Source: a virus
Taxonomy: Duplodnaviria; Caudoviricetes
Direction: 5' to 3' (one strand)
DNA length: 28,990 bases
IMG/VR virus record: IMGVR_UViG_3300043690_000019
Coordinates: 1-28,990 of that record
How positions within the stretch are numbered: the first letter of the stretch is position 1; each line of letters starts with the position of its first letter. Of this stretch, positions 1-17,527 are shown piece after piece. The notes beneath the pieces were generated by a model, which was not told the origin of the DNA, searched no databases, and saw only the letters and a list, made by a program, of their open reading frames with translations. The position numbers were made by a program, and so were the translations under genes.

Positions 1-1
1 T

Positions 2-293: not shown

Positions 294-3200
294 ATGAAAC
301 GATTTGTTTTCATCGTCGCGCTTTTGTTTGCCTGCGCTTCTCTTGCCTTCGCGCAGAATCCGCCGGTTCAGCAGTTCAATCAGGATTTCATATCTTCTAC
401 GCAGTGTGTCTCGGTTCCGGTAAGTGGACTCGGAACTGGGAGTTTTGGCGTCAGCGGGACTTGGACCGGGACACTTTCCGCGCAGGGCATTGTGGGGCAG
501 GCTGCGGCGGTCACACTACTGAACGCCACGGCGAACGGCTCTTACACGGTCGCGGTCTCCGGATATACGAAATTTCAGGTCTGCGGAAATACGGTCTCTT
601 CCGGCTCCGCTTTTGTTCAGGTCTACAGCACGGGATTAACGAGCAACGGAGCCTTCGCCGGGGCGCCAAATACGATCACGGTTGGCGGATCATCGGCAAC
701 GTTCCTAGGCTCCGATCTCTGCCAAGCCTTAGCTAATGCCCTGAACGGCACGCTTACCAGTGGGCAAAAGTGGGGCGGGGTCTTCCATACCGAAGGCTTC
801 ACCGGGACGCAAGCTTGCGGAGCTACCACGCTGAACAACCTGAATGCCGCGCTTCAGCAAACCACGGGCGCGGCAAATATTCTTCTGGGTTGTCCGCTGG
901 CATGGTATCTGCCGGTGCAAACTTCGCAAGCGGCTACGGTCGGAACTCCGCCGGTCGGCATGCTTAATCTCACGCCCTATGACAACCTTGGCGGATGTAA
1001 TGCGGCATCGGTCGCGGACAATCAGACGACCCGAATTATTGCTTGCCCTCCGTCCGGCGTCACGGGATGTCCCGCGCCGCAGTCGCTCTTCTGGCCGATC
1101 ACTTCTACAGTCGCCAGCACATCCGGTGCCACGATCAACGACCGCGCCTACATTCAGGTGAATGCTTCCGGCGGAGGCATGGTGATTGTAGGCGGCGACC
1201 CGTTTACGATTGATAGCGGGAGCGTGGGAGCCATAGCGGGATCTTTTACCGCTTGTCAGGTCTCTAGCTCCGTTCCCATTACCGGCTTCGCTTACGCTAA
1301 CCCAAATATCACTTTCACCAACACCGGAACGAATGGGCTCAGCGCAGGCTCCCTAGTTACCCTATCCGGATTTTCCGGGGCGAACGCCGGTCTCAATGCT
1401 TCGTGGACGGTTGCCAGTTCCGCCGACGGTCAGCATTTTGTCATCAACTTTGGTGCAGGCTTCGGCGGGTCGACCGCGGCCGGTACAGCGCAAACCGGGA
1501 ACACCAGCGTTCAAAACGATAGCAAGTGCCCCTTCAATCCCACGCCGACCACGGTTTACGCCGCAATCGAAAATGGGATTCTGGCGACGTCGATCACCAA
1601 CGCGGGAAGCGGCGGCACCTGCAATAACATCGTTCCGACTTGGGGCGCGGGTTGCATCATCAACCCTGAATTGCATATCACCTGCTCCGGCGGCGCGGCG
1701 AACGGCGCCTTCATCAAACACGCCGGAAAGTGCACATCGACGCCGACGATTTCAGGCTTCACCGACACTTTAGGCGGGACGGTTCCGGTCGGCCTTGCGA
1801 TCTCCGTCTTCACTGCCCAGTCTGCCGCGGGAAGCCAAGCAACGGGAAATTGCACGTCGGGATGCGGGTTGATTCATCAGGAAATCCCGATAGTTGAAGT
1901 CGTGGACAATTCCGGAACTAACCAGAATGCCCCGATGGGCGCGCAGATCCACGATTTAATTCTTGATACGCGCCAGAGTGCCGACGTGATCTGCTATCGC
2001 GATCTGGGCGGAAACGAGCACACAAGGCTTTACGCCGTTAACTGCGCCGGGGTCACGATGCGCGGTATTGACCGCCATTCAAAGCAAACCAACTCCGGCG
2101 ATGAGATCTACAGCTTCCGCGCCATCAGCGGAAAGCTTCCCAATCAGGCGACGCCCCCGGCTACCAGCGGCACGGGATCTTTGACGGCCGGAGTTCTGAC
2201 CACGACCGCAGGAAATGGTTTCTTCTATGGCTTAAATGTTTCAGGGAATCCGGCTTGTGTCTACGCCGTGAACACGCCGATTTACTTGACCACGGGCGGA
2301 GTCACGACGGCTTTTGGAATTTCGACCTGTGGGGCTTCGGCCACGGTCACATTCTCCAACGGCTCTGCAGTCATCTCTGGTATTGGGACGACCGTCGGCC
2401 TTTACGCTGGTTTGCCGATTCACTTCGCCACAACCGGAACACTTCCGACCGGCTTCACTCCCGGCACAACGTATTACGTCATTTCTACCAACTTAGGAGC
2501 TACGCAGTTTTCGGTAGCTTCAACGATTGGCGGCTCCGCGATTACCGCGGGGTCGGCCGGTTCCGGAACGCAGACCGCCATGGCGGGACTGACGGTGACG
2601 ATTCAGAATCCCCCGGCCAACGGCACATATAGTTACTACATCCCGGGCGTCGATCTGGGAACGGAATGCGTCTACGGCGGCGGCGGCTTCGGCCATGGTC
2701 TCAGAAATTACACTTGTGACTATTCATCAGCCGTCTCCCAATACGACTACCCCTACATCAGTTCCAACGTCGGAACCGCAGTGATGCGGCTCCCGAATTG
2801 CGGTCTTCGACTGGAAACGAATTACTTCGGAACGACGGTGATGGACGGGCACACTGAGCGGTCGCAGACCAATATCTGCGCGGGTCTAGGTCAACCGGTT
2901 TACGGCTTGAATATCATTGATAGCTACGGTGAACCGAACGCCATCACAAACATCACAGGGCAATTCCAGAACTACCATCCGACAAATATCAAGTTCTTCA
3001 ACGACTACTGGAATAGCTCCCTTTCGACGGTGTCATCGCAGCAATACAGCGTCACCGATGCGCCGACTTCGTTTAATTCCTATTACTCGTTAGTCGATGA
3101 CAATCCGGTCGGACCGGCTTTCACCGCGGGACCGGCGGACGTGCTGAACCTTTCGCAATATATGGTCGAATGGTCGGCGATTCAGACTTCCGGCTCTAAT

Positions 3201-3743
3201 ACGCTTTGCTCAACCGTCAATTCGACAGTCCCCGGCTTCGGGAATTTCTCCAACTGTCCACAGGCGGGTTTTTTCCTCTCTGGGAATGCCCTGACCTTGA
3301 GCGCCGACACTGCGGGAATCGCCGCCACAACCCCGGCGACCGCGAATCAGACCTTCACCCTGAAAGGATTTTTTGCCAATCAGACCTATCGCGTGCACTG
3401 CTCCGGAACTACCGTGCAAAATACGGCCGGAGCGGGAATTGGGATCTCCGCCGCGGCGGTCGCTCCGGTCACATCGGTCAGTTGGAACCTTCACGCACAG
3501 GTCTCCACGTCGGCGACGGCGACCGCGGGAAGCTCTTCGGGCGTCGTGACCAATAGCGCGACCGCAACTTCCATCTATGCCGTCGCCGCGGGAACTCTGA
3601 CCACAGAATTACCTTGGAGCGTCGACGGCTATATCACCGTGGGCGCAAATGCGCCTTCATCTTTCATCATCGGCTTTTACACCCAAGCCGGTGCCGACAC
3701 TGTAGTTGTGAAGCAGGGAAGTTACTGTTCGATGATGCAGTAA
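294..3743 (+). CDS. Large Cys/Gly/Thr-rich virion-type appendage protein with signal peptide (1149 aa)
   Basis: MKRFVFIVALLFACASLAFA|Q; beta-rich; contains a TTGTLPTGFTPGTTYYV motif of the kind seen in phage structural proteins; 28 Cys after the signal; alternative TTG start at 261. Confidence 0.7.
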   Translation: MKRFVFIVALLFACASLAFAQNPPVQQFNQDFISSTQCVSVPVSGLGTGSFGVSGTWTGTLSAQGIVGQAAAVTLLNATANGSYTVAVSGYTKFQVCGNTVSSGSAFVQVYSTGLTSNGAFAGAPNTITVGGSSATFLGSDLCQALANALNGTLTSGQKWGGVFHTEGFTGTQACGATTLNNLNAALQQTTGAANILLGCPLAWYLPVQTSQAATVGTPPVGMLNLTPYDNLGGCNAASVADNQTTRIIACPPSGVTGCPAPQSLFWPITSTVASTSGATINDRAYIQVNASGGGMVIVGGDPFTIDSGSVGAIAGSFTACQVSSSVPITGFAYANPNITFTNTGTNGLSAGSLVTLSGFSGANAGLNASWTVASSADGQHFVINFGAGFGGSTAAGTAQTGNTSVQNDSKCPFNPTPTTVYAAIENGILATSITNAGSGGTCNNIVPTWGAGCIINPELHITCSGGAANGAFIKHAGKCTSTPTISGFTDTLGGTVPVGLAISVFTAQSAAGSQATGNCTSGCGLIHQEIPIVEVVDNSGTNQNAPMGAQIHDLILDTRQSADVICYRDLGGNEHTRLYAVNCAGVTMRGIDRHSKQTNSGDEIYSFRAISGKLPNQATPPATSGTGSLTAGVLTTTAGNGFFYGLNVSGNPACVYAVNTPIYLTTGGVTTAFGISTCGASATVTFSNGSAVISGIGTTVGLYAGLPIHFATTGTLPTGFTPGTTYYVISTNLGATQFSVASTIGGSAITAGSAGSGTQTAMAGLTVTIQNPPANGTYSYYIPGVDLGTECVYGGGGFGHGLRNYTCDYSSAVSQYDYPYISSNVGTAVMRLPNCGLRLETNYFGTTVMDGHTERSQTNICAGLGQPVYGLNIIDSYGEPNAITNITGQFQNYHPTNIKFFNDYWNSSLSTVSSQQYSVTDAPTSFNSYYSLVDDNPVGPAFTAGPADVLNLSQYMVEWSAIQTSGSNTLCSTVNSTVPGFGNFSNCPQAGFFLSGNALTLSADTAGIAATTPATANQTFTLKGFFANQTYRVHCSGTTVQNTAGAGIGISAAAVAPVTSVSWNLHAQVSTSATATAGSSSGVVTNSATATSIYAVAAGTLTTELPWSVDGYITVGANAPSSFIIGFYTQAGADTVVVKQGSYCSMMQ

Positions 3744-3783
3744 AAACCCAGATAAACCGCATACCCACATCAGGAGAGAAGCG

Positions 3784-4722
3784 ATGCCATCAGGGATAAT
3801 TCTGAGTTCTGGAAGTGTAGGCGCCACACAGGAAGCCATCGAAAAAGTTTTGGCCGATAACGGATACGAAGCCGACAAACCAGCCATAGAAGAGCCCACG
3901 GCGCCGGTCGAACCGAAGCGCGAAGACTTCAAGACCGACGAAGAATTTGAATCCGCCCAAACGGAATTTGAAGCCGCACAGGAAGACGCCGAAGAAAAGC
4001 AACGGCAAGAAGAAGAGCGCAAACGGCTGGAAGCCCTTCCCCGCAAATCCCGCACTCAGAAGGCGATTGAGAAAGCCACCAAAAAACTAGCGGAAGAAAA
4101 CAAGAAGCTGGAAGAGCGACTGGCGGCGCTTGAAGGCAAAAAGCCAACGGAGCCAAAGCCGGAAGAATTGAAGGCACCGAAGCGCGAAGACTTCAAGACC
4201 GACGAAGAATTTGAAGAAGCCAAATTTCAATACCGGTACAAGTTGCAACGGCAGAAAGAACAGGGCGAAGAGTCGAAGAAAGCCATCGAGACCCATCAGC
4301 GGGAAATGCTTTCGAACTATCAAGCCGCCAAAGACGAAATCAAAGAGGAATATGCGGACTGGAATGACACCCTTGAACAATTCGGAGAATCCCCGGTCAG
4401 CGCTTCCGTGTACGTCGCGATTTTGAGTCTGGAAGAAGGTCCGCGAGTGTCCTACTACCTTGCGAAACACCCAGACGAACTCGAAAAACTAAACGCTATG
4501 TTCCCCGATCAGGCAACGCGGGAAGTCATTCGCCTGCACGACAGGCTGAAGACGAAGACGCCGCCGAAGGGAACGAGCGAACCACCAAAACCCCGGCCGA
4601 AACTCCCGGCGCCGGTTGTCCCGGTAAGCACTTCGGCCACCAACTCAACCGCCACTTCGCGCGATGCGGCCGCAAGCCGCGATTACAGGGCCTTCAAGAG
4701 AGCCCAGCGCGCCGGACGGTAA
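3784..4722 (+). CDS. Capsid scaffolding protein
   Basis: Highly charged coiled coil; EGPRVSYYLAKHPDE motif; directly upstream of coat; AGGAG RBS. Confidence 0.85.
   Translation: MPSGIILSSGSVGATQEAIEKVLADNGYEADKPAIEEPTAPVEPKREDFKTDEEFESAQTEFEAAQEDAEEKQRQEEERKRLEALPRKSRTQKAIEKATKKLAEENKKLEERLAALEGKKPTEPKPEELKAPKREDFKTDEEFEEAKFQYRYKLQRQKEQGEESKKAIETHQREMLSNYQAAKDEIKEEYADWNDTLEQFGESPVSASVYVAILSLEEGPRVSYYLAKHPDELEKLNAMFPDQATREVIRLHDRLKTKTPPKGTSEPPKPRPKLPAPVVPVSTSATNSTATSRDAAASRDYRAFKRAQRAGR
3912..4215 (+). repeat. Perfect 40-bp direct repeat (3912-3951 and 4176-4215) encoding PKREDFKTDEEFE
   Basis: accgaagcgcgaagacttcaagaccgacgaagaatttgaa occurs twice, identically. Confidence 0.95.
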
Positions 4723-4737
4723 TCACAGGAGATTCCC

Positions 4738-6009
4738 TTGGCAAACCTGATACTCACGAATCAGGAAATCGGCTTCAAGAACCTGATGGTGCTTGAAAAC
4801 TCGATTTCCTTCACGAAGAAAGTCGTTCGGCGCTATGACGACAAATTTGGAAAGTCTGGCGCGAAGATCGGCTATGTGTTGAACATCCGCAAACCCGCGC
4901 GCTCCGTCTCGACTGCGGGTCAGGGGATTCAGCTTCAGGATTACATTGAGCGCTCCGTTCCTTTACTCCTGAATAAGCAGTACCAGCAAGCATGCGCTTT
5001 CACGTCGTCTGATTTGGCGCTTTCTTTGGACGATTTTACCAACCGCGTTACGAAGCCGAAAATCGTTCAGTTGGCAAACGATATCGACTTCGACGGCTTG
5101 CAGCAATTCGTCAACGTCCCGGCCGAAGTGGGCACACCGGGAACGGTCCCGAACACGGCAGATACCTATCTAAACGCCCTGCAGGTTTTGGCAGACGAAG
5201 GCTTCCCCGTGGACGATGAAGAGGGGCTCTCGGTGCACATCTCTCCGAGAATGCAGCGCTCCATCTTCCCGGCACTTCAGGGCCTTGTTGCAACCGGCTC
5301 AGGCACGGCGAACTTTGCTTTCCTGCGCAACTTGGCAAAAGGCGAAGGCGGCGAAGAAGACTACTTCAAGGGCCTTGTGGCAAAGGGTCTCGGCTTCGAC
5401 TGGTTTATGACGCAGAATGCTCCGACGTTCACTACAGGAACGCAGGGCGGAACGCCGACAGTCAACGGAGCCAATCAGACCGGCTCTTCCATCGTGACGC
5501 AGGCGTGGTCGAATAACATCACCAACGTCCTAGTCGCTGGGGACATCGTCTTTTTTGCCGGCGTCCACAGAATCAACCCTCTGACCCGTCAGTCTACCGG
5601 TGATTTGCGGCCCTTCGTAGTCACTGCGAATCAAACGTCATCCGGCGGCGGAGCGGTCACGATTCCGATTGCCTGCGTCGACGGCGATGGGATCACGCTG
5701 GCCGGTCCTTATCAGACGGTTGACGTCTCCCCGGCGAACTCGGCGGCGGTCACTGTGCAGGGCGCGTCGGCGGTTCAGTCATTCCGCGGTCTGGCGTTCC
5801 ATCCGGAGGCTTTCTGCTTCGGTTGCGCGGATCTCGAAATGTACGACAACCAGCACATGATGGAAATGGCGGCTGATAAAGAACTCGGCTTAGCTATCCG
5901 CATGTGGGCACAGCCGGACATCAACACGGATCGATTATTGATGCGTCTTGACGTGCTAGGCGGATGGATCACGATGTATCCGCAGGGCGCCGTCCGGATC
6001 GCCAGCTAG
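4738..6009 (+). CDS. Major capsid protein, P22 coat (gp5) family
   Basis: MANLILT...LENSISFTKKVVRRYDDKF..SGAKIG..LNIRKP N-terminus and RLDVLGGW C-terminus; TTG start with AGGAG RBS. Confidence 0.93.
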   Translation: MANLILTNQEIGFKNLMVLENSISFTKKVVRRYDDKFGKSGAKIGYVLNIRKPARSVSTAGQGIQLQDYIERSVPLLLNKQYQQACAFTSSDLALSLDDFTNRVTKPKIVQLANDIDFDGLQQFVNVPAEVGTPGTVPNTADTYLNALQVLADEGFPVDDEEGLSVHISPRMQRSIFPALQGLVATGSGTANFAFLRNLAKGEGGEEDYFKGLVAKGLGFDWFMTQNAPTFTTGTQGGTPTVNGANQTGSSIVTQAWSNNITNVLVAGDIVFFAGVHRINPLTRQSTGDLRPFVVTANQTSSGGGAVTIPIACVDGDGITLAGPYQTVDVSPANSAAVTVQGASAVQSFRGLAFHPEAFCFGCADLEMYDNQHMMEMAADKELGLAIRMWAQPDINTDRLLMRLDVLGGWITMYPQGAVRIAS

Positions 6010-6050
6010 TTCAGCGCAGGAAAAATCCACACAGGAGAAAAATTTCAACC

Positions 6051-6923
6051 ATGAATCGCAACCTGAATCGCTTCTTGAAAGCTCTCTTCTGGTATGCGCT
6101 ATTTGACGTCTTGGTACTTGGCTATGCCGGGATTTTCCCGGGCGTCGAACTGGCTGCAGCCCAGACCGCACTTACCACAACGACCCTCTCCGCGGCCGTC
6201 AACGGTCCGGCAGGGTACAACGGGACGACAAGCGTCATTGATAATTGTTGGACGCTGACCGCCGTCACCGGCATCAGCGCGCCGACTCTCCCCGGTACTC
6301 CGGTAAGCGTCATTTACTCGGACCGGGAAGCGCTTGGAGTGCTGACCGTCAATACAAACACAAAGCAGGTCTGCGGTATCCGCGGATACCTGTCAACACA
6401 AGCGCATCCGCACATCAGCGGAGCGCTCGTATTGATTGCTCCGGCCTATAACTCGGCGAACGGAGGAAATCCAAACTCTTCGGGCTTCCTTCAATCTGAT
6501 ATGCCCCTCGGCGGGGCGTGCACGGCGGCGAATACTCCCACGACGCCCATGATCAATGTACTGACCGGGGCGCAGTGGCTTTGTTCTTCGGTCACCGGTA
6601 CTTGGGCCCCGGGCTGGCAGAATCCGCTTTCTGCTCCGGCGACTTGGGTACAGACCGCGACTGTCGCTTCTGCGGCCGGGGCAATCACGCCTTCCGGACC
6701 GTATTTCAACATCAGCGGCACTGCGGCGATTACCGGCTTCAATATTCCAGTGGGGTTTGATACGACCACAGGCGGATGCTTCACCGCCAACCCTACCGGA
6801 ATTTGGACTTGGACCGCCGCGGGGAATATCGCCACTGCCGGAACCACGACGGCGGCTACGACGCCAGTTACTTTCTGCTGGAACGTAGCTAGTTCGAAGT
6901 GGATTCCAAGCCGTCTGTCGTAA
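6051..6923 (+). CDS. Putative capsid decoration protein with N-terminal signal peptide (290 aa)
   Basis: Directly after coat; basic n-region, hydrophobic stretch, AAA|Q, then ALTTTTLSAAV; RGYLSTQAHPHISGALV motif; 6 Cys. Confidence 0.65.
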   Translation: MNRNLNRFLKALFWYALFDVLVLGYAGIFPGVELAAAQTALTTTTLSAAVNGPAGYNGTTSVIDNCWTLTAVTGISAPTLPGTPVSVIYSDREALGVLTVNTNTKQVCGIRGYLSTQAHPHISGALVLIAPAYNSANGGNPNSSGFLQSDMPLGGACTAANTPTTPMINVLTGAQWLCSSVTGTWAPGWQNPLSAPATWVQTATVASAAGAITPSGPYFNISGTAAITGFNIPVGFDTTTGGCFTANPTGIWTWTAAGNIATAGTTTAATTPVTFCWNVASSKWIPSRLS

Positions 6924-6999: not shown

Positions 7000-7209
7000 A
7001 TGCCGCCCCTTGATGGAAAAGAGCCGGTCCTTCCGGTTCCCTTTGACGCACATGACAAAGTTCTCCGCGCTTCTCCGGAACAGGAACCGCAGGAATATCC
7101 AAAGGCAGTTGACCATGTCGACCACCCTTCAGGCGTCGGACTGCAGCCCATCGTCGTCAATTCGGCTGAAGAAGAAGCAGCCTACAAAGAAGCCGCAAAG
7201 CCTGAGTAA
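7000..7209 (+). CDS. Small head-region protein (EYPK...VVNSAEEE motif)
   Basis: ATG at 7000 after GAGG; motif shared with the next gene. Confidence 0.7.
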   Translation: MPPLDGKEPVLPVPFDAHDKVLRASPEQEPQEYPKAVDHVDHPSGVGLQPIVVNSAEEEAAYKEAAKPE

Positions 7210-7255
7210 TCGGCGCGTTTTCTGATTCGAAAATCTCACTTAGGAGAACTCCGCA

Positions 7256-7591: not shown

Positions 7592-8395
7592 ATGCCTGAT
7601 CTCGGACCCGTCGGCACCGTTACCCGCACTGCAACGGACTTCATCAAGTCCGCCCTGCGGCTTGTGGGCGCGCTCCGCTCCGGATTGAATTTATCCGGGG
7701 CGGAACTCACGGACTGCCAGCAAGTCTTGAACGACATGCTGGACGCATGGGGCGTTGACCGGACTTTGGTCTACGTAGTGCCGCGGGTCACATTGAATCA
7801 GAATCAGGCAACCCTGATGCTGAAAGCGAATCAGGCGACCTACACACTGGGGAATCTGACCGGGAACGAAGATTTTTTTCTGCCCCGTCCGCCGCGATTG
7901 GAGCGGGTTTCTATTATGTATTCCGCTTCCCAGCAGACGCCCGTAGAACTCGCCATGGATATGTACGACGATGTCAGATGGCAAAGCGTCGCGAACAAGT
8001 CCACGCCTTCACTTTTACCGCAGGTCTGCTACGTCGAAGAAAGCTTCCCTGATATTTCGCTGACCTTCTGGCCGGTGCCGACGCAGGCGAATCCGGTCGT
8101 CCTTTACTTGTGGCAAGCGCTGACGCAATTCTCGGATCTGACTTCACAGTTCACTTTCCCGCCGGGATATCCGCGCGCTATTCGATACAACCTAGCGTTA
8201 GATCTGGCGGCGGAGTTTCCCTGCGACCTGACGAAGCTCCCGTTAGTGCAGAAGATCGCCGCCAACTCTCTCGCCGCGATTCGCGGATTGAATGTGAAGG
8301 CAAAAGAAGCGGTATGCGATGAAGCCATCATCGGCTCCGGCGGAAAGTCAGGGAACATCTACACTTCAACCGCTAGCCGGGGTCTTAGAAACTAA
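7592..8395 (+). CDS. Head-to-tail adaptor, P22 gp4-like
   Basis: TATDFIKSALRLVG...LNDMLDAW N-terminus; FPPGYPRAIRYNLA; gene order. Confidence 0.8.
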   Translation: MPDLGPVGTVTRTATDFIKSALRLVGALRSGLNLSGAELTDCQQVLNDMLDAWGVDRTLVYVVPRVTLNQNQATLMLKANQATYTLGNLTGNEDFFLPRPPRLERVSIMYSASQQTPVELAMDMYDDVRWQSVANKSTPSLLPQVCYVEESFPDISLTFWPVPTQANPVVLYLWQALTQFSDLTSQFTFPPGYPRAIRYNLALDLAAEFPCDLTKLPLVQKIAANSLAAIRGLNVKAKEAVCDEAIIGSGGKSGNIYTSTASRGLRN

Positions 8396-9916
8396 ATGCG
8401 CTTCGGTTTTGTAGGTCCGGCTTATGCTTCCCCGTCTCCTCTGGCGGCGAATGAGCAGCTTATCAACTGGTATCCCCAGAAGATAGAGTCTCCGAACGCG
8501 CGCGTTCCCTTTATCCTTCTGCCGACTTCGGGACTCTCGCTTTTTGCGAATCTGGGAAATTATCCGACAGGCGTAAGAGGCTCGGGGACTTTCAACGGGA
8601 GAACCTTCAAAGTCGCCGGAACGCATTTAATTGAACTGACGACAAACGGAGTAACAGACTTCGGGGGCTTCGGCGGTAATAACAATATCGTCGATGATGG
8701 GCTTCCGGTGACAATGGTCTGCGGCGGGACGGTCGGCGGAAATTATCCTTCCCAGCTTCTCATCTGCTCCGGCGGAACTTTGACCGTCTTTTCTCTCGTC
8801 TCAAATACCTTTCAAGCGCTCACAACTCCCCCGGCAAACGTGCTAATGGTTGATTTTCTGGCTGGCTTTTTCTGCGCCCTAAGCTCTGGAAATTCTTGGA
8901 GCGTCTCCGCAGTTGAAGATGCTACGACATGGCCGGGAACGGCGGTCTCTCAAGTCTCCATCTTTTCAGATCAGCTTTTGGCGCTCATCGAATGCAATGA
9001 ATTGATCTGGTTACTCGGGGCGAAGCATGCCGCGGCCTATTACGTTTCCGGTGCACCCCTGTTCCCCTTTGACGTTACCAGCGGCGGAGTTCTGAATATT
9101 GGAATTCTGGCGCAATTCTCGGCTACCAGAATCCAGACGGCGCGCGGCGGACGGACGTTAGCGTGGATCGGCGGAGATGACAAGAGCGGCCCGACGGTTT
9201 ACGCCCTGAATGGATACATCCCGCAAAGGATCTCGGATTCAGCGCTTGAATACTGGCTTTCCCATAACACCGTGACAGACGCGGTCGGAATGTTCCGACA
9301 GGAATCGGGACAAAATTTCTTTGATCTGTGGTTCCCCACGGCGAATGCTACATGGACGCTTGATGCGGATCTGGGGATGTGGCATCGCAGGGCTTACGGA
9401 GTTCAGGGAGCCCATCTACAACGGTCGAATACCTATAACGCAGCGCTGGGCGGTCATCTGATCGGCGACCGGACTTCGGGAAAAGTTTTCCTCTTGAACG
9501 ATACCAATCTAACGGATAACGGCGCGGCAATCATCCGGACGCGCGTCGGGCCCACGATTTCAAACGAAGGCGGACAGATCCCCGTGGGAATCAATGAATT
9601 TCAAGTGGATTTTGAGATGGGCTTAGGTCCGCAACCGCCGTTGAAAGATGCCTTCGGTAATCCCCGTGACCCTTTGGCGATGTTTTCCTATTCGGAAGAC
9701 TTCGGAAAGACCTTCGGACCGGAACGGATGATTCCCTGCGGACAAGCGGGAAATTTCAAGGCCGTCGCCATTGATCGGCGTTTGGGGTCTTGGCGCTCTT
9801 GGACGCCAAAGGTCACGGTCTCTGACCCGATTTCTTGGCGAATTGCCGACGCCTACGTGAATGGCACACAGGATCAAAAAGAGCGCTATGCGAAGAGCAT
9901 GGCGCGCATTGCCTAG
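8396..9916 (+). CDS. Packaged DNA stabilization / tail hub protein, P22 gp10-like
   Basis: 506-aa beta-propeller-like sequence; INWYP, WHRR, FSYSEDFGKTF and RRLG motifs; follows gp4. Confidence 0.85.
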   Translation: MRFGFVGPAYASPSPLAANEQLINWYPQKIESPNARVPFILLPTSGLSLFANLGNYPTGVRGSGTFNGRTFKVAGTHLIELTTNGVTDFGGFGGNNNIVDDGLPVTMVCGGTVGGNYPSQLLICSGGTLTVFSLVSNTFQALTTPPANVLMVDFLAGFFCALSSGNSWSVSAVEDATTWPGTAVSQVSIFSDQLLALIECNELIWLLGAKHAAAYYVSGAPLFPFDVTSGGVLNIGILAQFSATRIQTARGGRTLAWIGGDDKSGPTVYALNGYIPQRISDSALEYWLSHNTVTDAVGMFRQESGQNFFDLWFPTANATWTLDADLGMWHRRAYGVQGAHLQRSNTYNAALGGHLIGDRTSGKVFLLNDTNLTDNGAAIIRTRVGPTISNEGGQIPVGINEFQVDFEMGLGPQPPLKDAFGNPRDPLAMFSYSEDFGKTFGPERMIPCGQAGNFKAVAIDRRLGSWRSWTPKVTVSDPISWRIADAYVNGTQDQKERYAKSMARIA

Positions 9917-10453
9917 ATGCGGCGCTTACTTGAAAGCCTGATTCCTGCACATTGGGACGGATCGACGGGAGACCCGAATTCCCCAAGAACGAAATGGCTG
10001 CAGGGCGTTGATGATCTATTTAACCGCCCCGTTTTAAATCGGCTTTCAGCTTCCACGAATGCGACCGCAATCAACTGCAACGGAGCAATCCAGTCGACGG
10101 GCCTCGGAGTCGGCCAGCTTCAACCCCGGCGGTATGCGGAATTTACGGTCAAAGCGCGAGTTTCGTTCAATATCAATTCCACCGGTCCGGCTTATCTCTA
10201 CGTCTATCGGACTCTGGGAACAATTCCTGCGAACGGCGCCGCCCCCGGCGGCTCAGACGTGATCGTCGGCGGGGATGCCTTCACCGGGGGAGCGACAGTA
10301 AGCGGTCAGGCGCAATGCGCAGCCTTCTCTTTTCTCGACGCCGGCTTAGATGTGACGAAGCAGTATCGCTATTACTTCGCGATCAAAGGGCCCAACGGGA
10401 CGACCTTGAATCTGACTAATTCTTCTCAGTTGCTCATCATGGAGCGCTCATAA
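9917..10453 (+). CDS. Hypothetical tail-associated protein
   Basis: Abuts gp10-like gene, in the slot of P22 gp26/gp14; beta-rich C-terminal half. Confidence 0.6.
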   Translation: MRRLLESLIPAHWDGSTGDPNSPRTKWLQGVDDLFNRPVLNRLSASTNATAINCNGAIQSTGLGVGQLQPRRYAEFTVKARVSFNINSTGPAYLYVYRTLGTIPANGAAPGGSDVIVGGDAFTGGATVSGQAQCAAFSFLDAGLDVTKQYRYYFAIKGPNGTTLNLTNSSQLLIMERS

Positions 10454-10454
10454 A

Positions 10455-11366
10455 ATGGCAACGTTAGCTCTCGCTGGTATCGGGGCTCTAGGGTCACTCT
10501 TCGGCGGACTCTTCGGCGGAAGCGCCGCATCGAAAGCGGAACAGCAATATTTACAGGCTTTGCAGCAAGCCCAAGGCAGTCTGAAGGAAGACGAAGCGAA
10601 AGGGCTTCAAGGTTACAACCCTTACCAGATCGGCGGCTATGGCGCACAGACAACCCTTTCCAGCCTATTAGGAACGCCGGGGCAAGGGCTTCTGACGCCA
10701 TGGACTCAGCAATTCACGGCGCCGACCGAAGCCGAAGCGGAACAGACTCCCAGCTATCAGTTCCAACTCCATACCGGCGAAGACGCCATGCAAAACTCCG
10801 CCGCGGGGCGGGGAAGCTTATTGACCGGCCGGACCTTAGCGGACCTGAACAACTTCGCGCAGGGAACAGCGTCGACCAATTATCAGAACGTATTCAATAA
10901 CGCCCTGACCCAGTACAACTCCGCCTATCAATCCTTCCTGAACAACCAAAACGATACCTATGCCCGATTAATGGGGCAGGCGGGGATGGGACTGGGAGCG
11001 ACGGAGAACGCGAACAGCTTCAGGGCGAATATGGGCGGGGATATCGCTTCACTCTATGGGCAGATGGGCGCCGCCAGAGCTCAAGGCACCATGGCGCAAG
11101 CGAATGCCTACTCTTCCATTCTCCCCGGGATTACGAATGCCATCGGAAGCGGTCTGACCTTAGGGTCTCTCTTGGGGAATGGCGGCGGAGGTTCCCAGAC
11201 AAGCACCTTTGACCCCTACGCATGGATTGGGACGCCGTCCTACATGCCCAGCACGCCCAATTACGGAACGCCCAGCTTCCCGGGCTTCGATCCGAATGGC
11301 AATGGGACGCTCCCAATCTCCGCCCTGATGGGAAATTACAGAACGGCCACCATGCCGCAGGTCTAA
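10455..11366 (+). CDS. DNA ejection/transfer protein, P22 gp7-like
   Basis: Gly/Ala-rich hydrophobic N-terminus; PSYQFQL..GEDAMQNSAAGRGSLLTGRTLADL motif. Confidence 0.8.
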   Translation: MATLALAGIGALGSLFGGLFGGSAASKAEQQYLQALQQAQGSLKEDEAKGLQGYNPYQIGGYGAQTTLSSLLGTPGQGLLTPWTQQFTAPTEAEAEQTPSYQFQLHTGEDAMQNSAAGRGSLLTGRTLADLNNFAQGTASTNYQNVFNNALTQYNSAYQSFLNNQNDTYARLMGQAGMGLGATENANSFRANMGGDIASLYGQMGAARAQGTMAQANAYSSILPGITNAIGSGLTLGSLLGNGGGGSQTSTFDPYAWIGTPSYMPSTPNYGTPSFPGFDPNGNGTLPISALMGNYRTATMPQV

Positions 11367-11370
11367 TAAA

Positions 11371-12909
11371 ATGCCCTTTCAGCTTCCAGCGCTCCCGAAT
11401 TTTAATCCCGAAATCCCGCAGATGCCCTCTGCCTTGGACACCTACGGGAAACAACTGCAATTGAAGAATCTGATGGGTCAGCAACAACTGATTCCCCTGC
11501 AGCTTCAGGAAGCACAGGAAAAGGTGAAACAGGCGCAGACCGCGACCGAAATGCAGAATTTAGAGATGCAGTCGCAAAAAGCCATGGTCGGCGCGTGGTC
11601 AGACCCGAAATTTTTGGAGAACTTCACCGGGACGGACAAGGCAAAGACAAGCGGCTTCGGCTTCGATCCGGACGCCCTGACGTCTGCGCTGATTTCGAAA
11701 GGCGTCTTACCTAAAGACGCGATGCAGATGACGCAGTCTTTCATCGAACGGTCGCAGAAGATCGCCGCCACACAGAAAGACATCGCCCAAACCGGCGAAG
11801 CGAATGCCTCTATTCGGGAAAAGGGAATGAAGGTTCTGGCAGACAAAATCGCCGGAGTGTTAGACCTGCCAGCCGGGAAAGCTCCGGAAGCCTTGGCGAA
11901 CCTGAAGCAGGATCTTGTGAAGAATCCGAATGCCTACGCGGGAGTGCCGCAGGAAGACATTGCCCACGTCTACGGGGCGGACTTAGAACATCTCCCGGCC
12001 ATGGCAACACTGATCGGACTGGATTCGAAGATTGCCGACTTCCACAAAGCGAAAGCAGAAGCGGAGAACGCAACCCCGGAAGGCGCGGCGAAAAAAGCAG
12101 GGGCGGAAGCGCAAGCCAAGTTAGACGTCGAAAGCAGTCCGGAAGCACTAGCACTTGCCAGCAAAAAGGCAAATATGGAAGCCACTGCACGCCAGCAAGC
12201 CGCGCAAGGCGACCCGAACGTAGCCGGGAAGATGCTTGCCGACGGATCTTTGACTTTGGCCGACTTGAAGACGCGCGGCACGACTCCGCAATTCATCGAA
12301 AAGGCGGTATTAGCCGCACAGAAAATCACCCCAGCTTACAATCCAGCAGACGAAATCATCGCAGAGAGCGTCGCGAAATCCCCTGCGGCTAATCAGTTCT
12401 TCGGCTCCGCAAATTCTCTGATTGGCAAAGGCGGAACGCTTGACCAACTGGAAAAGCTTGGAAAGACGATTCCGCAGCACGACTTCCCGGTTTTGAATTC
12501 GGTTGACGACTGGCAGAAGCTTGCGCGCGGCAAAGGTCCGTTAGCCGGATATGCGGCGACGGCGCTCGGAGTCGCTGACGATTACGGAAAAGTCATGGGC
12601 GGCGGGAATGCCTCCGACCACGCGCGAGACGCGGCTTTAACGCTATTCGGGGCAGCTTCCAGCCCAGAACAAAGAGCCGATGCAATTAAAGCAACCCGCG
12701 ACGCGGTTCAATCCCAAAGAGATTCCCGCATCGGAAACAATCAATTCCTCAAGCGGCAATATGGCACCGAAGTTTCAAAAGGCGCTCCAAAAGAACTGCC
12801 GAAATCGCTTACCGCGGAGCAGATCAGCGCTTATGCCGCGGGGCATAACGTCACCGAAGCCGAAGTAAAACGACAGGCAAAGGCGCAGGGGATCTCCGTT
12901 CCTGACTAA
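11371..12909 (+). CDS. DNA ejection protein (gp20 position)
   Basis: Gln/Ala/Lys-rich helical 512 aa, Cys-free, follows gp7-like gene. Confidence 0.65.
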   Translation: MPFQLPALPNFNPEIPQMPSALDTYGKQLQLKNLMGQQQLIPLQLQEAQEKVKQAQTATEMQNLEMQSQKAMVGAWSDPKFLENFTGTDKAKTSGFGFDPDALTSALISKGVLPKDAMQMTQSFIERSQKIAATQKDIAQTGEANASIREKGMKVLADKIAGVLDLPAGKAPEALANLKQDLVKNPNAYAGVPQEDIAHVYGADLEHLPAMATLIGLDSKIADFHKAKAEAENATPEGAAKKAGAEAQAKLDVESSPEALALASKKANMEATARQQAAQGDPNVAGKMLADGSLTLADLKTRGTTPQFIEKAVLAAQKITPAYNPADEIIAESVAKSPAANQFFGSANSLIGKGGTLDQLEKLGKTIPQHDFPVLNSVDDWQKLARGKGPLAGYAATALGVADDYGKVMGGGNASDHARDAALTLFGAASSPEQRADAIKATRDAVQSQRDSRIGNNQFLKRQYGTEVSKGAPKELPKSLTAEQISAYAAGHNVTEAEVKRQAKAQGISVPD

Positions 12910-14204
12910 TGGGCGAACTACAAACAACTCAAATTGATTTCTCGCAACCGCCTCCGGCTGCGATTGATTTCAGTCTGCCTCCGCCAGCAGTTGAACCGCT
13001 GCGATTGAGCGACCCTAGAACCGTGCCGAACGCGCGGATTCGGAACATGACCGTAGACCCCACGAAGAATATTCACTCTACGGGGCAGGCGTTCTACGAA
13101 GGCGCAAAGATGGGCGCTCTGGGTGCATCAATTCCCGGCGTCGTTTATGCAACCGTGCCGGGATTGATCGGAGCAATTCTTGGCGGAACCGCAGGAGCCG
13201 CCGGAGGGAAGAAGCTGGCGGAGACTGTCGGCGCGGGAGATTTCGGACAGGAAATTGGTGAAGACTTAGGAAGCTTAGCCGGGGGAGCAGTCGGGGCGGG
13301 AGTTACTGACGCAGCAGTCAGCGCAGTTCGGCAAAGCCGTCTAGGAAATGCCCTGCAAAATGTTCTGGGGATCGCCAGTAAGGACATCGTCGCGCGGGTT
13401 CCGGTTCTGGGGCATTTAGTTCGACGCCCTTCGTTTCAGGATTATTTAGGCGCATTCCAGAAAGGCATGAAAGCGCCGGAGCCGGTTTATCCCGGGGCGC
13501 CATATCCGACGGCAACGCCGGAACAGTTAAACCCGTCCCTCATCAGCGAATCGCGAACGCTCCCGGGGATGAATTCTCCGGAGATTATCCGACCGCCAGC
13601 GCAGCCAATTCCAGCGCGGAGCGGTTTGATGCTCTCTGGGCAAGTGGAAGCGGCGCCAACTCCCGGCGCGGCCGGGAGCATGGTCGAATCCATCGCGCAG
13701 CCTTCTCCGCAGGTCACGCCATCCGGCGAAGGAATTCCGAGAACCCTTAGCGGAGAAAGCGCATTGACCCACGTTCTAGGCGGAAGAGAAAACTCGACGC
13801 TTATGAAGATTGCAAAGGCGCGCGGATTGAATGTCACGCAAGAATCACAACTGAAGGCAGGACCGGCAAACAAGCTTCTCATTGCGAAAATTGTCAGCAG
13901 TTTTTCGCCGGAAGAACTCGAAGAGGTACGGGCGCAGTATCTCGAAAACACCCGTTTCCGCCATGTCTTTCCGGATATCGGAGAAGAAGCTTGGGACACG
14001 ATGACACTGCAGACCTATTTCCCAGACGTGAAGATTCCCAAAACGCAACTGACAAGAACTAGTGCGGCGCTCCGCAGTGCGGGTCAAGCGAAGCCAGTCG
14101 TATCTCCTCCATCTCCTCTTCCGTCATCTCCTGATTTGGTGGACCCGCTTCAAACGATGCTGGATGCGGTGAAGTCGGGGAAGAAGCTGGCCGACCTGCA
14201 CTGA
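12909..14204 (+). CDS. DNA ejection protein (gp16 position)
   Basis: TAATG overlap with previous gene; Gly/Ala-rich membrane-active segment; Cys-free. Confidence 0.6.
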   Translation: MGELQTTQIDFSQPPPAAIDFSLPPPAVEPLRLSDPRTVPNARIRNMTVDPTKNIHSTGQAFYEGAKMGALGASIPGVVYATVPGLIGAILGGTAGAAGGKKLAETVGAGDFGQEIGEDLGSLAGGAVGAGVTDAAVSAVRQSRLGNALQNVLGIASKDIVARVPVLGHLVRRPSFQDYLGAFQKGMKAPEPVYPGAPYPTATPEQLNPSLISESRTLPGMNSPEIIRPPAQPIPARSGLMLSGQVEAAPTPGAAGSMVESIAQPSPQVTPSGEGIPRTLSGESALTHVLGGRENSTLMKIAKARGLNVTQESQLKAGPANKLLIAKIVSSFSPEELEEVRAQYLENTRFRHVFPDIGEEAWDTMTLQTYFPDVKIPKTQLTRTSAALRSAGQAKPVVSPPSPLPSSPDLVDPLQTMLDAVKSGKKLADLH

Positions 14205-14313: not shown

Positions 14314-14386
14314 CGGTCAATTCTTCGCCTTCTCCAACCCTTTGAAAAGTAACACCCAAGCCAAGAGAACAAACGGCGACAATTAG

Positions 14387-15571
14387 ATGAAACCTGAAAA
14401 CTTCTTCAAAGAACTGGGCTTTCTGGCCCTCCGTCTCTGGGTCTTCGTTCTTCTCCTGATGGGCGCGGCTCACTGTCAGGTCTCGCCGTTCATGGGCATC
14501 GGGAATGCTCAGTTTCTCGATAACAACGGGAAGCCACTGACGTCGGGCGTTCTCTACTCCTACACCGCCGGGACGACTTCTCAGCTTGCCACGTTCACCG
14601 ATTACACGGGATTAATCGCAAATCCCAATCCCATCCCATTCGGCTCCGGCGCGCGCGTATCCATCTGGTTGACCACGGCGAATCTCTATAAGTTTGTTTT
14701 GTGCTCCCAGAATGACGGCGCAACCTGCGCTCCGGCCGATGTGCTTTTCTCTGTGGATCAGGTTCCCGGCGGATCTACAGGAAGCGGCGGAAGCTCCTCG
14801 GGGACGTTTACCGGTACGCTTGTCACCGGAAGTTCCGTACCGGCCACGGCTGGGATTGTCCGCGTCGCTTCGGGGGATTTCGCGCTCTGCTTCCGGAATG
14901 CGGCGAACTCCTCAAACCTCTGCATCACAAAAGACTCTTCCGACGTTCTAGCTTGGGCGACAAATTCCTTCAAGCTTCCAGAGGCAGCCTGCAGCGCATC
15001 GGGCGCAGCTTTTGATTATCTCTGCGCGGACTCGGCGACGCATCGGCTGGCGATGTTTAATAATGGCGGGTCGAAGCAGGTCATCGCAGCGCAGGGCGTC
15101 GACATCAATTCTTCAGATCAGGTTATTCAGTTACATTTCGGGGCTTCTGCTCTTCCTCTCGGGACCGCGCCCAGCGCGGGTCAATTTCTTCTCTGGAATG
15201 GAGCCAATATCACCGGAGCAAGCGGACCGGAAACCACTTTCACCGCCATGGCTCCATCGCTTTCTATCTGCGCCGCCGCCGTCGCCTGCCCTGTCTTTGT
15301 GCTTGTCAACGCCCATACCTTGATTAGAGTCGTTGCGAACGTTTATCAGGCGGGAACCGGCTGCGGTACGAACGCCAAGGCGGGGGTCGTCGACATTACC
15401 GGATCGTCGACCCTGAATCAGACGATCAATCTAACCGCAACGGGAATCTATGACTCCGGCGCAATTTCCGTCGCCATGACAGCCGGACATCAGTTCGGAC
15501 TAGGCACGACGGTTGTTCCGGTCGGCTGCGGACAGAATCCCGCGTTCACCATCACCGCTACCTATCAATAA
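14387..15571 (+). CDS. Tail fibre with virion-anchoring N-domain, preceded by a signal peptide
   Basis: LALRLWVFVLLLMGAAHC|Q, then QFLDNNGKPLTSGVLYSYTAGT...NPNPI anchoring motif; 10 Cys in the mature part. Confidence 0.8.
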   Translation: MKPENFFKELGFLALRLWVFVLLLMGAAHCQVSPFMGIGNAQFLDNNGKPLTSGVLYSYTAGTTSQLATFTDYTGLIANPNPIPFGSGARVSIWLTTANLYKFVLCSQNDGATCAPADVLFSVDQVPGGSTGSGGSSSGTFTGTLVTGSSVPATAGIVRVASGDFALCFRNAANSSNLCITKDSSDVLAWATNSFKLPEAACSASGAAFDYLCADSATHRLAMFNNGGSKQVIAAQGVDINSSDQVIQLHFGASALPLGTAPSAGQFLLWNGANITGASGPETTFTAMAPSLSICAAAVACPVFVLVNAHTLIRVVANVYQAGTGCGTNAKAGVVDITGSSTLNQTINLTATGIYDSGAISVAMTAGHQFGLGTTVVPVGCGQNPAFTITATYQ

Positions 15572-15583
15572 AAATTCATCCCC

Positions 15584-17527
15584 ATGAATAAATATCTTCT
15601 GGCTTTTCTGATTTTCTGCCCGTTCGCCTTGGGACAGGGCACATTTGTTTCCCCACAGATGGCCCTGAAAACCGTCAACGGCCTGACGCAACCCATGGCC
15701 GGGGCGACGATCACGGTCTGCCCCCCGAATAGCGCCGGAATTCCCTGCACTCCGGCAACGGTTTCGATTTACAGCGATTCCGCATTGGCGCAGCCATTAA
15801 GCAATCCCTTCACGGCAGATGCGAACGGGAATTTTATTTTTGCCCTGCCCGTGACGACTCCCATGGCGACCGTCACAGTCACAGGCGCAGGCTTTTCCGG
15901 ATATTCGTATCAGGTGATGCGCGGCGGATCGGTGACGCCGACTTATCCCGTCGAAGCCTTCGGAGCAGTCGGAGACTGGAATGGAAGCACGGGAACGGAC
16001 AACACGACAGCGATACAGCTTTGCCTGAACACGATTGCAAATGGTGTGTGTCTGCTTCAGGGAAAAGGTTACAAGATCAGCGGGGCGCTCACGATCAACC
16101 GCTCGGGAGTCGGCATTTCCGGAGCCGCTTCCTATTTTTTGGCGAATTCCTTCTGGTCGAATCCGACGAACCTTACACAACTGATTTCTACCAGCGCCTC
16201 GGCCGACATTATCGACATCGTTGGATCTGTGGCGCCCTCTACGCTCTATAACAATTCCGTGCGATACCTGGGATTGGCCCGCACCGTTGCGCCCAGCGGC
16301 ACGGCAAAAGGTCTGAGTGTCGTTAACACCTACGGGACTCAAGTAGACAGCGTCGTCTCTGTGGATTCCATCTATCCGTTTTATTTCAACGGAGTCGGTT
16401 CGAGCCAAACAGGATATATCGAGAACTGCGAGGCGGGTTGGGGTTTCGGGACTGTCACGGAAACCAGCGGAGCCATGATCGGATTCTTTTTAGACAGTTC
16501 GACGGTGCAAAATCCTTCGATACGAATTCGCAATTCCGGGACTTCCAGCAATCTTCCCCACTCCGGTTCTTATTCAATGGTTGGGCTCTCCGCCAACGGA
16601 GCCTCCACCAACGACCTTCATATTAACCATTTCGAGACTGCCTCTGTCGATACCGGAATCAACATCAACCAGACCAGCGGCGTTTTTTTTGGCAGTTCCG
16701 ACATTCATCTCGTGGATGTGATCAACGATGGCTGCCTTCAATACTGCATCAAGATCAACGGAGTCGGCGGGGCGGTACAAATTACCGGCGGCTGGGACAC
16801 CTGCAACGTAGGATGCGTGGACAATATTGATATTGAATCCTCGAGCAACGTGACCGCGGTCAACGTGGGGATGTACGCCTATACCGCAGTTCCGAATTTT
16901 CTGGCCCACAACTCCACCAACATCACTTTAGCGGACTCGAGCACTTACGGAATAAGCGCAACGCCGATTGTCTTCAATGGTGTCACGACGGGGCACATCT
17001 CGAATGTCACCGTGACTGGAGCGGCGGGGGCGACCGGAATCACCATGACCGGCTCTACTAGCATCCCCATCACCGGCACGATTTTAAGCAACGGCGGCGG
17101 CGGGATGACAGTCGGAATCTCGATTGATGCCGCCAGTCACGGAATCACTGGACTCGAGTCTGACCTCTGCACGACAGGCGTGACGACCTGCATCAGCGAT
17201 GCTGGAGGGAATTTTATCTCCATCCCTCTTCCGCCCAATGCTAGCGGAGCCGCTGCAGGGATCACGGGGACCGGAGCCTGTTCTACCCTTTCAACCCAGA
17301 CCGGCGCAGGTTGGAGCGGTTCGATCAAGTGCACCGGAGGCACAGCGGCCAGCACGATCGTTATTACTCCCGGAGGAACCGCGACCAACGGCTGGGCCTG
17401 CTCCGGCTCTGACTACACCGCTGGCACTGTGGCGGCTCAATCCGGCCTCAGTGCGACTACCTGCACATTGAAATTCGCCAGTGTAGCGACAAACGATTTC
17501 GTCAGCTTCACCCTGAACCGCTTCTGA
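15584..17527 (+). CDS. Tailspike (pectate-lyase-3-like beta-helix) with signal peptide
   Basis: MNKYLLAFLIFCPFALG|Q; SNPFTADANGNF anchoring motif; VEAFGAVGD...TDNTTAIQ beta-helix cap; 15 Cys in the mature part. Confidence 0.85.
   Translation: MNKYLLAFLIFCPFALGQGTFVSPQMALKTVNGLTQPMAGATITVCPPNSAGIPCTPATVSIYSDSALAQPLSNPFTADANGNFIFALPVTTPMATVTVTGAGFSGYSYQVMRGGSVTPTYPVEAFGAVGDWNGSTGTDNTTAIQLCLNTIANGVCLLQGKGYKISGALTINRSGVGISGAASYFLANSFWSNPTNLTQLISTSASADIIDIVGSVAPSTLYNNSVRYLGLARTVAPSGTAKGLSVVNTYGTQVDSVVSVDSIYPFYFNGVGSSQTGYIENCEAGWGFGTVTETSGAMIGFFLDSSTVQNPSIRIRNSGTSSNLPHSGSYSMVGLSANGASTNDLHINHFETASVDTGININQTSGVFFGSSDIHLVDVINDGCLQYCIKINGVGGAVQITGGWDTCNVGCVDNIDIESSSNVTAVNVGMYAYTAVPNFLAHNSTNITLADSSTYGISATPIVFNGVTTGHISNVTVTGAAGATGITMTGSTSIPITGTILSNGGGGMTVGISIDAASHGITGLESDLCTTGVTTCISDAGGNFISIPLPPNASGAAAGITGTGACSTLSTQTGAGWSGSIKCTGGTAASTIVITPGGTATNGWACSGSDYTAGTVAAQSGLSATTCTLKFASVATNDFVSFTLNRF

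Follow-up and report, generated by a model that had tools for sequence, protein, structure and literature searches.

The window, the whole stretch of 28,990 nucleotides that was analysed, carries P22-type coat, scaffold, gp4, gp10 and ejection genes in a P22-like order. Judged from its genes, the phage appears to be a P22/PBR31-like podophage with a short tail, and its host is probably a soil member of the Acidobacteria (Acidobacteriota). The genes of the late strand, several of which are named here by their first coordinate, are as follows.

26..268, + strand: portal gene 3' end (context), assigned by size and by gene order compared with PBR31
294..3743, + strand: 294, a 1149-aa Ser/Thr-rich protein in an optional portal-scaffold slot; leader 294-353, 28 mature Cys
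3784..4722, + strand: scaffolding protein, leaderless (phrog_8865, E 2e-35)
4738..6009, + strand: P22-type coat protein, leaderless (PF11651, E 2e-28; 38.8% to PBR31)
6051..6923, + strand: 6051, post-coat protein, likely a capsid accessory; atypical 37-aa leader 6051-6161, 6 mature Cys
7592..8395, + strand: gp4-like tail adaptor, leaderless (family profile: P22 gp4 E 2e-4, Pam1 adaptor E 0.025)
8396..9916, + strand: gp10-like head closure/nozzle, leaderless (phrog_578, E 5e-61)
9917..10453, + strand: 9917, a leaderless 178-aa protein at the tail-needle position, assigned by position
10455..14204, + strand: three genes at ejection positions (gp7-like, gp20 and gp16 positions), without a basic leader (first: phrog_598, E 1e-19)
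14387..15571, + strand: 14387, a 394-aa fibre/spike; leader 14387-14476, 10 mature Cys, tailspike head-binding domain at about 14477-14767
15584..17527, + strand: 15584, a 647-aa tailspike-like protein; leader 15584-15634, 15 mature Cys (odd), conserved N-domain 15635-15928
17529..17939, + strand: putative endolysin with a Tlde1 domain, leaderless (PF10908, E 3e-10)
17948..18169, + strand: putative holin of 73 aa with two hydrophobic stretches, assigned by position and hydrophobicity
18210..18731, + strand: 18210, fifth leader gene, likely an outer-membrane beta-barrel; leader 18210-18266 (AFA/Q), no mature Cys, C-terminal Phe

A 739-aa ORF of contig L172, which overlaps window positions 1-3066 at 99.97%, ends with the 3' end of the portal gene. 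The single-sequence PDB search with the gp4-like protein returned nothing relevant, and Pfam and PHROG searches gave no family match for the 9917 protein. This leaderless protein could serve adsorption, a point that speaks against the two-compartment assembly proposed below. The database places the start of 6051 at 5964; this start was not accepted, as it would lie within the coat gene and the relatives begin near 6051.

N-terminal leaders were scored with a position matrix of our own. Its training set consisted of 96 leaders from the 14387 family, chosen with Gln at +1 as the selection rule, and the remaining families were held out. The predicted cleavage sites lie after 20 residues in 294 (AFA/Q, score 23.5), 37 in 6051 (AAA/Q, only 0.2), 30 in 14387 (AHC/Q, 17.0, a circular score as this is the training family) and 17 in 15584 (ALG/Q, 20.0), and all four leaders are of Sec/SPI type, ending in x-x-[AGC]/Q. 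Outside 294, 14387, 15584 and 18210, the other 12 late-strand proteins scored from -21.9 to 1.8, and the 25 opposite-strand ORFs at most -0.2. The basic, hydrophobic and A-x-A-like N-termini that the earlier note had described on these four proteins were found as described, the window copy of 6051 being atypical. With the matrix, a basic n-region, a hydrophobic core and small residues at -3/-1 were present in 294, 14387, 15584 and 18210, the last of which (score 19.0) had been overlooked in that first reading. The low score of the window 6051 results from a long leader with an Asp in its core, an atypical form shared with five relatives; 109 of the 119 held-out 6051 relatives have clean leaders at scores of at least 8, 111 have Gln at +1, and the mature Gln1 is invariant in all 62 aligned rows of the family. 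Among the training leaders, the -1 residue is always small (96/96: A63, S19, G12, C2) and the leader sequences are otherwise freely variable. A lipoprotein (SPII) reading of the 14387 site was rejected, since 94 of 96 relatives have Ala, Ser or Gly in place of Cys30; no lipobox was flagged in 15584 or 18210.

The distribution of leaders over the gene families departs from chance. Across the fetched loci, among which are the window itself and a few contigs present in duplicate, and whose members are kin, so that the counts are not independent, a leader was scored in 31/32 6051, 28/32 14387, 8/8 15584 and 3/3 294 proteins, and in 0/40 scaffold, 0/90 coat, 0/93 gp4-like, 0/90 gp10-like, 0/25 9917-like, 0/17 gp20-position and 2/26 gp7-like proteins, these two gp7-like proteins being without a basic n-region. 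This agrees with the earlier statement that the scaffold, coat, gp4-like, gp10-like and gp20-position proteins carry no such signal. Of 19 host ORFs with leader-like starts in Acidobacteriota genomes, 7 also had Gln at +1, versus a background of 4.4%. As in the window leaders, Gln directly follows the SPI site in Q-rule substrates of Bacteroidetes (PMC5837995), a paper in which Acidobacteria are unmentioned.

The 14387 family profile matched the tailspike head-binding domain of Pam1 (PDB 7EEQ, E 3e-8) and Pan3 (9VYG, E 5e-9), a model of 14387 superposed on 7EEQ with an rmsd of 2.8 Å over 90 columns (TM 0.69), and tblastn matched the N-terminus of the PBR31 tailspike (E 3e-10). This was the sole match to the head-binding profile in the window, where a leaderless copy was not seen. 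The N-terminal domain, the gene order and the place after the ejection genes are as in the cyanopodophages Pam1 and Pan3, Xanthomonas phage PBR31 (gp34; PMC10975493) and P22 (gp9); PBR31 gp34 has a Met immediately ahead of the domain and no leader, whereas 14387 has a leader and an inserted Cys pair. In unled head-binding homologues, a Met stands where the mature Gln would be. The alignment of homologues that had been proposed as a check showed the leader to be an extension ahead of the conserved domain, present in 8/8 Acidobacteriota genome loci versus 1/32 elsewhere, the host labels being MAG bins, many on short contigs. The domain is kept at 40-70% identity across more than 100 leader-bearing relatives, and on the head-binding-domain tree, where L075 was scored wrongly, the leader may have arisen just once. 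Searching 401 Acidobacteriota genomes with profile A1 yielded no new head-binding locus, its two matches being the centre genome and a C-terminal match. Inspected for a central parallel beta-helix, the model of 14387 has fibre-like strands and a C-terminal sandwich, with best matches to lambda gpJ, Bd2133 and C1q/TNF-like folds, and on this modelled fold the protein may be better called a short fibre.

The 6051 product is likely a capsid accessory. Its family gene lies directly after the coat gene in 53 of 56 distinct full-length relatives, and a P22-like coat gene precedes 17/18 leaderless and 35/36 leader-bearing orthologues. The 18 distinct leaderless orthologues have no Cys (15), one (2) or two (1), and the 36 leader-bearing ones have 2-8, always an even number. 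The two invariant Cys of the family are absent in 9/9 aligned leaderless rows, and in the 62 rows both members of each of five variable Cys pairs are present or absent jointly. On a Cys-masked tree of the protein itself the leader label changed three times, two of these changes being forced, and on the coat tree it changed four times. Residues 1-96 resemble barrels of virion proteins, with Z 8-10 to capsid, baseplate and tail protein barrels (9IN6 capsid: Z 9.8, rmsd 2.5, 79 aligned), and the C-domain reached Z below 6; barrels of ATPases and GTPases are likewise similar to it, at Z 5-6. Foldseek gave nothing at E 0.001 and tblastn against cultured phages no match.

The mature Cys count is even in 94/96 members of the 14387 family, 109/109 of the 6051 family and 26/28 of the 15584 family, the window 15584 being odd. 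Among the scored head-binding domains, 87 of the 90 leaderless copies had no Cys, and 23 of the 28 leader-bearing copies had at least two. DsbA-like genes were found in 4/4 Acidobacteriota genomes, VKOR in 3/4 and glutaminyl cyclase (PF05096) in 1/4. Since export signals occur with paired Cys, folding outside the cytoplasm is likely, and the post-coat slot, where leaderless orthologues mostly have no Cys, makes export with disulfide folding very likely; we hold this with high confidence for the leader-bearing proteins. The export proposed earlier is thus strongly supported by leaders that diverge in sequence yet keep their cleavage site, by their host-linked presence and by Cys pairs that track the leader. 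Four leader-bearing head-binding domains have no Cys inside the domain, and these, together with the Cys counts of phage phi18:3 given below, argue that disulfides are not the sole reason for export.

The other leader-bearing proteins are less readily placed. The 15584 N-domain matched only 7EEQ in the PDB (E 0.14), so the earlier claim that a leader precedes a virion-anchoring motif in both 14387 and 15584 is well supported for the former and weakly for the latter. PF13620 was matched by 15584 at E 3e-4, under the cut-off, the N-domain had no tblastn match among cultured phages, and its profile did not align with that of 14387 in hhalign without the context library (Neff 2-3). Beyond the N-domain, the protein presumably has beta-helix character, judged from its motifs, with no database support past E 7e-3. 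Single-sequence PDB searches with 15584 and 294, and PDB searches with full-length profiles A2 and A3, returned nothing relevant. No Pfam, PHROG, PDB or cultured-phage (tblastn) match was found for 294, whose residues 1-115 reached viral clusters at Atlas 0.77, under lead level, and in 20 of 35 relatives this optional slot is without a leader-bearing gene. The 294 product is likely exported and may not be a virion part. The earlier assignment of the leader-bearing proteins to the virion is therefore backed for 14387 and 6051 by their homology and their place in the gene order, is weakly backed for 15584 and is unsupported for 294. The 18210 product is likely an outer-membrane beta-barrel protein, for which Atlas look-alikes (YfaZ, Tsx and PagL, 0.91-0.92, low recognition) serve as a lead only; its leader indicates that the phage exports non-virion proteins as well. 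A lipoprotein spanin was not seen in five lysis regions, and in three of them a leader-bearing barrel-like protein took the place of a spanin.

Tailed phages are described in textbooks as finishing assembly in the reducing cytoplasm, and P22 tailspikes attach late, also in vitro. From the topology of the late proteins we infer that the leader-bearing ones probably join the virion at lysis, in a two-compartment assembly. The cytoplasm would be the place of assembly for the head, the tail core and the ejection proteins. Spike, fibre and post-coat proteins would be exported through Sec and lose their leaders to signal peptidase I; once folded in the periplasm, with disulfide bonds, they would dock on finished particles when lysis opens the inner membrane. 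Cleavage would put the mature N-terminus exactly at the start of the leaderless homologues and would thus leave the surface for docking as it is in them. The route is switchable protein by protein.

The exported proteins might instead never become virion parts and act as host-surface or secreted factors derived from tail genes, in receptor masking, superinfection exclusion or the breakdown of capsule or matrix at release, like the MAT fibres of Bdellovibrio. The latter form trimers that resemble phage fibres and have signal peptides and, in part, disulfides (PMC10769870), and the 14387 model matches one MAT-type fibre, Bd2133 (8OND, E 2e-4), in a similar fold; but they are bacterial surface adhesins outside any virion operon. 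The optional 294, the exported non-virion 18210, and the leaderless tailspike followed by a leader-bearing neighbour in PBR31 and in Trinickia prophage L083 fit such a role, whereas the conserved head-binding domain of 14387, with no leaderless copy to replace it, and the interchange of leader-bearing and leaderless proteins in the post-coat slot do not. We consider this account unlikely overall and most plausible for 294.

Particles might also be completed at the membrane, through uncleaved N-terminal anchors, or by reaching the periplasm or vesicles of the membrane ahead of lysis, with appendages added there and not in the lysate. The long atypical leaders of 6051 and five relatives and the spanin-less lysis regions with barrel-like proteins could be read in this way, but the conservation of small residues at -3/-1 and of Gln at +1, the alignment of the mature start with Met1 of leaderless homologues and the endolysin- and holin-like genes make it improbable. 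Inoviridae pIII and pVIII are virion proteins with Sec leaders that are membrane-anchored and assembled during extrusion without lysis; assembly of that type was rejected for the window phage, which has an HK97/P22 coat, a portal and lysis genes, the Tlde1 gene among them. It is more improbable still that each gene gives two products, an internal start providing a leaderless cytoplasmic virion chain and the leader-bearing form being incidental or having another job. Met35 of 14387 lies just past the cleavage site, and 54/96 relatives have a Met within -4..+12, but only 10/109 in the 6051 and 3/28 in the 15584 family do, and the paired Cys imply that the selected form is oxidised. A Shine-Dalgarno sequence precedes the internal Met in 1/28, 0/44 and 0/7 loci, a weak test because it precedes the upstream start in only 13/28, 11/44 and 0/7.

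Assembly in two compartments with docking at lysis, the reading we prefer, has parallels in cultured phages. Tunturiibacter phage Tunturi 1 (PP887698; PMC11924767), a cultured Acidobacteriota podophage of another, 63-kb lineage that is absent among the best 25 coat matches listed, has five proteins that score as leader-bearing (gp12, 13, 14, 16 and 17), four of them with 10-32 Cys, and unled core genes; gp14 is labelled 'tail spike' and gp17 and/or gp16 'virion structural protein'. The main text of its paper contains no virion proteomics and leaves signal peptides unmentioned. For the tailed Cellulophaga phage phi18:3 (KC821620), with a Bacteroidota host, GenBank notes give gp85-87 as structural proteins detected by MS/MS; they have leader-like starts with Gln at +1 (gp85 scoring only 2.8) and 0, 1 and 3 Cys, and no homology to the window proteins was seen for them; cleavage is not mentioned in the record. 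MS of virion preparations can pick up co-purifying proteins. In the literature searched, which included few subscription papers, no account of a periplasmic-maturation route for tailed phages was found, in keeping with the earlier remark that no described example was known, although the phi18:3 proteins had already been annotated as structural.

There is a somewhat better than even case for a second tailed-phage pathway, in which naked heads and core tails would form in the cytoplasm and receptor-binding and capsid-surface proteins in the periplasm, particles becoming infectious only after lysis mixes the compartments. Such a pathway would be widespread in Acidobacteriota phages, reach Bacteroidota phages and perhaps PBR31, switch per protein, and maybe be paired with spanin-less lysis via an outer-membrane barrel. 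Were the periplasm the site where spikes and capsid accessories mature, lysis would be an assembly step and the host Sec and disulfide systems would count among the host factors of the phage. The phage could then have appendages that are stabilised by disulfides and perhaps modified in the periplasm, a property of possible relevance in acidic soils. The Tunturi phages, as cultured and non-pathogenic models, allow direct tests of two-compartment assembly. For annotation, leader-bearing genes inside virion operons are not necessarily morons.

Leaders, meaning Sec/SPI-type N-terminal signals that end in A, G or C followed by Gln, had been described in the earlier note on four genes: 294 (in the slot between portal and scaffold), 6051 (post-coat protein), 14387 (short fibre or spike with a head-binding domain) and 15584 (tailspike-like). 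Reading all four starts showed that they are real, with a low score for 6051. Scores came from a position matrix trained on 96 leaders of the 14387 family, which is circular for that family and held out for the others. 294, 15584, 14387 and a fifth gene, 18210 (likely an outer-membrane protein), scored 17-23.5, 12 other late proteins of the window at most 1.8, and its 25 opposite-strand ORFs at most -0.2. The 6051 protein itself scored 0.2; 109 of 119 relatives passed, and most of the 10 that failed were mis-started upstream or, like the window's protein, have a long leader. A subgroup (window 6051-6161; P0126, P0130, P0152, P0192, P0237) differs from the rest of the family in its long leaders, which acidic or polar residues interrupt ahead of the cleavage site.

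Across the fetched loci, in counts that include duplicates and the window itself, leaders were carried by relatives of 294 (3/3), 6051 (31/32), 14387 (28/32) and 15584 (8/8). The core structural proteins, most of which had been listed in the earlier note as signal-free, almost never carried one: scaffold 0/40, coat 0/90, gp4-like 0/93, gp10-like 0/90, 9917-like (tail-needle position) 0/25, gp20-position 0/17 and gp7-like 2/26. Leaders on the appendage genes are a real, lineage-wide feature.

The window, one virus record of 28,990 bases, has the following arrangement:

Plus strand: P22-like late operon with scaffold, P22 coat, gp4-like adaptor, gp10-like closure, three ejection-position genes, two appendage genes and lysis region.

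A portal-sized gene directly before 294 was seen on an overlapping contig. The best cultured match of the coat protein was Xanthomonas phage PBR31 (38.8%), with identical gene order. We infer an Acidobacteriota host, as the nearest loci with a taxonomic name come from bins of Bryobacterales and Acidobacteriaceae. Between 6051 and the adaptor (7000-7591) lie two small genes for charged, leaderless proteins, which had no family match and were kept in about 30-38 relatives. The opposite-strand arm (18772-28936) consists of consecutive short genes, none with a leader, and the ORF at 18772-19704 translates on the minus strand. In one Acidobacteriaceae bin (L049, G005:C25), a prophage-like region had many fragmented structural genes, which may reflect either decay or long-read errors.

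The 14387 family profile matched the head-binding domain of the Pam1 tailspike (7EEQ, E 3e-8) and the Pan3 tailspike (9VYG, E 5e-9), and the predicted model of 14387 (pLDDT 81) matched 7EEQ with an rmsd of 2.8 A. The N-terminus of the PBR31 tailspike, which its authors assign from a model to virion binding (PMC10975493), also matched 14387 (E 3e-10). Among 40 genome loci with this domain, the leader was present in 8/8 from Acidobacteriota bins vs 1/32 others, the bin labels of short contigs being weak host evidence; the single exception was a 1.7-kb contig, and the remaining leaderless loci had a Met start at about the position of the mature Gln. By sequence comparison, the leader of 14387 is an add-on ahead of a putative virion-docking domain. 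On the domain tree the leader state needed four changes, one from the mis-scored L075, and a single origin may apply.

The earlier claim of a virion-anchoring motif behind the leader is well supported for 14387, but for 15584 a shared head-binding fold was only hinted at (7EEQ, E 0.14). Relatives of 15584 carried leaders in 28/29 cases, the remaining one being a mis-start, and 15584 comes after 14387 in close relatives. No homology evidence for virion docking was found for 294. The portal-scaffold slot contained a gene of more than about 900 nt in 15/35 relatives, so it is optional; all 15 carried leaders, with two pairs being duplicates. In another locus (L023, 13688-14912), two extra leader-bearing genes between the 7256-like gene and the adaptor formed a third insertion slot.

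Cysteine counts in mature chains were even in 94/96 members of the 14387 family, 109/109 of the 6051 family and 26/28 of the 15584 family, the window's 15584 being odd. Alignment of 62 relatives of 6051 showed two invariant cysteines and five further pairs, each jointly present or absent. Among 96 full-length relatives (50%-identity representatives), 84 carried leaders, 83 of these with even counts; the 12 unscored comprised three with a leader or remnant by eye and nine leaderless with 0-2 cysteines. The genomic context of 56 distinct full-length copies (36 scored with leaders, two by eye, 18 leaderless) was alike in both states, 53 lying directly after a P22-like coat gene, and 15 of the 18 leaderless copies lacked cysteine. 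Leader state changed four times on a quick coat tree and three times, two of them forced, on a quick Cys-masked tree of 6051 itself. Two phages (L175, L177) combined a leaderless post-coat protein with a leader-bearing head-binding protein; therefore the export route is chosen protein by protein. In L207 the post-coat gene occurred twice in tandem after the coat gene (850 and 1500), both with leaders. The N-terminal barrel of the predicted 6051 model (pLDDT 90) resembled barrels of capsid, baseplate and tail proteins (Z 8-10), which fits, and does not prove, a capsid accessory.

The paired cysteines point to an oxidising compartment. Disulfides as the sole reason for export are argued against by four leader-bearing head-binding domains without any cysteine and by the few cysteines of the leader-bearing proteins of Cellulophaga phage phi18:3. 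Four Acidobacteriota genomes had DsbA-like genes (4/4), VKOR (3/4) and the glutaminyl cyclase PF05096 (1/4). In 400 kb of one such genome, Gln stood at +1 in 7/19 leader-like ORFs, some probably membrane anchors, vs a 4.4% background; Gln at +1 has been described in Bacteroidetes (PMC5837995).

The heads of tailed phages are built in the cytoplasm, and no way back into it is known for folded periplasmic proteins. The leaders would drive Sec export and SPI cleavage; in the periplasm the proteins would then form disulfides, fold and oligomerise, and heads and exported parts would thus first meet once the envelope is opened by the putative holin and endolysin. Since the window has no second, leaderless copy of the docking domain, either the exported copy is the one used or adsorption does without this domain, a role for which 9917 is a candidate. 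An internal start giving a leaderless chain that escapes export is poorly supported. Export of the leader-bearing proteins is very likely, and export followed by joining the virion is probable.

This proposed two-compartment route appears undescribed as far as searched, and its parts are of known kinds; a literature search, mostly of open-access papers, turned up no report of tailed phages that export their virion appendages. For two Bacteroides phages, signal peptides were only counted in the accessible text (PMC5723332). In the podophage Tunturi 1 (PMC11924767), which infects Acidobacteriota and is in culture, five tail-region genes score as leader-bearing. In phi18:3, gp85-87, MS/MS-detected structural proteins according to GenBank, have leader-like starts (2.8, 12.2 and 9.6), and the nine further MS-annotated proteins that were scored reached at most 3.9. 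The Bdellovibrio MAT fibres are an example of exported trimers of this kind (PMC10769870). The gene after the tailspike carried a leader in 2/39 loci with leaderless domains vs 11/19 with leader-bearing domains, and PBR31 gp35 also carries one. In the proteobacterial phage PBR31 (L046, 17115-17924, gp35) and a Trinickia prophage (L083), a leader-bearing 'putative structural protein' directly follows a leaderless tailspike; the main text of the PBR31 paper does not mention gp35 (PMC10975493).

No lipobox-bearing spanin was seen in five lysis regions. In three of these five, a leader-bearing, Cys-free, barrel-like protein was present, which may act on the outer membrane as a non-canonical lysis factor or, like Lom, belong to the host surface. 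The lysis regions have differing endolysin-like genes with a small holin-like gene (window 17529-18731; L048 15315-15818; L089 15480-16004).
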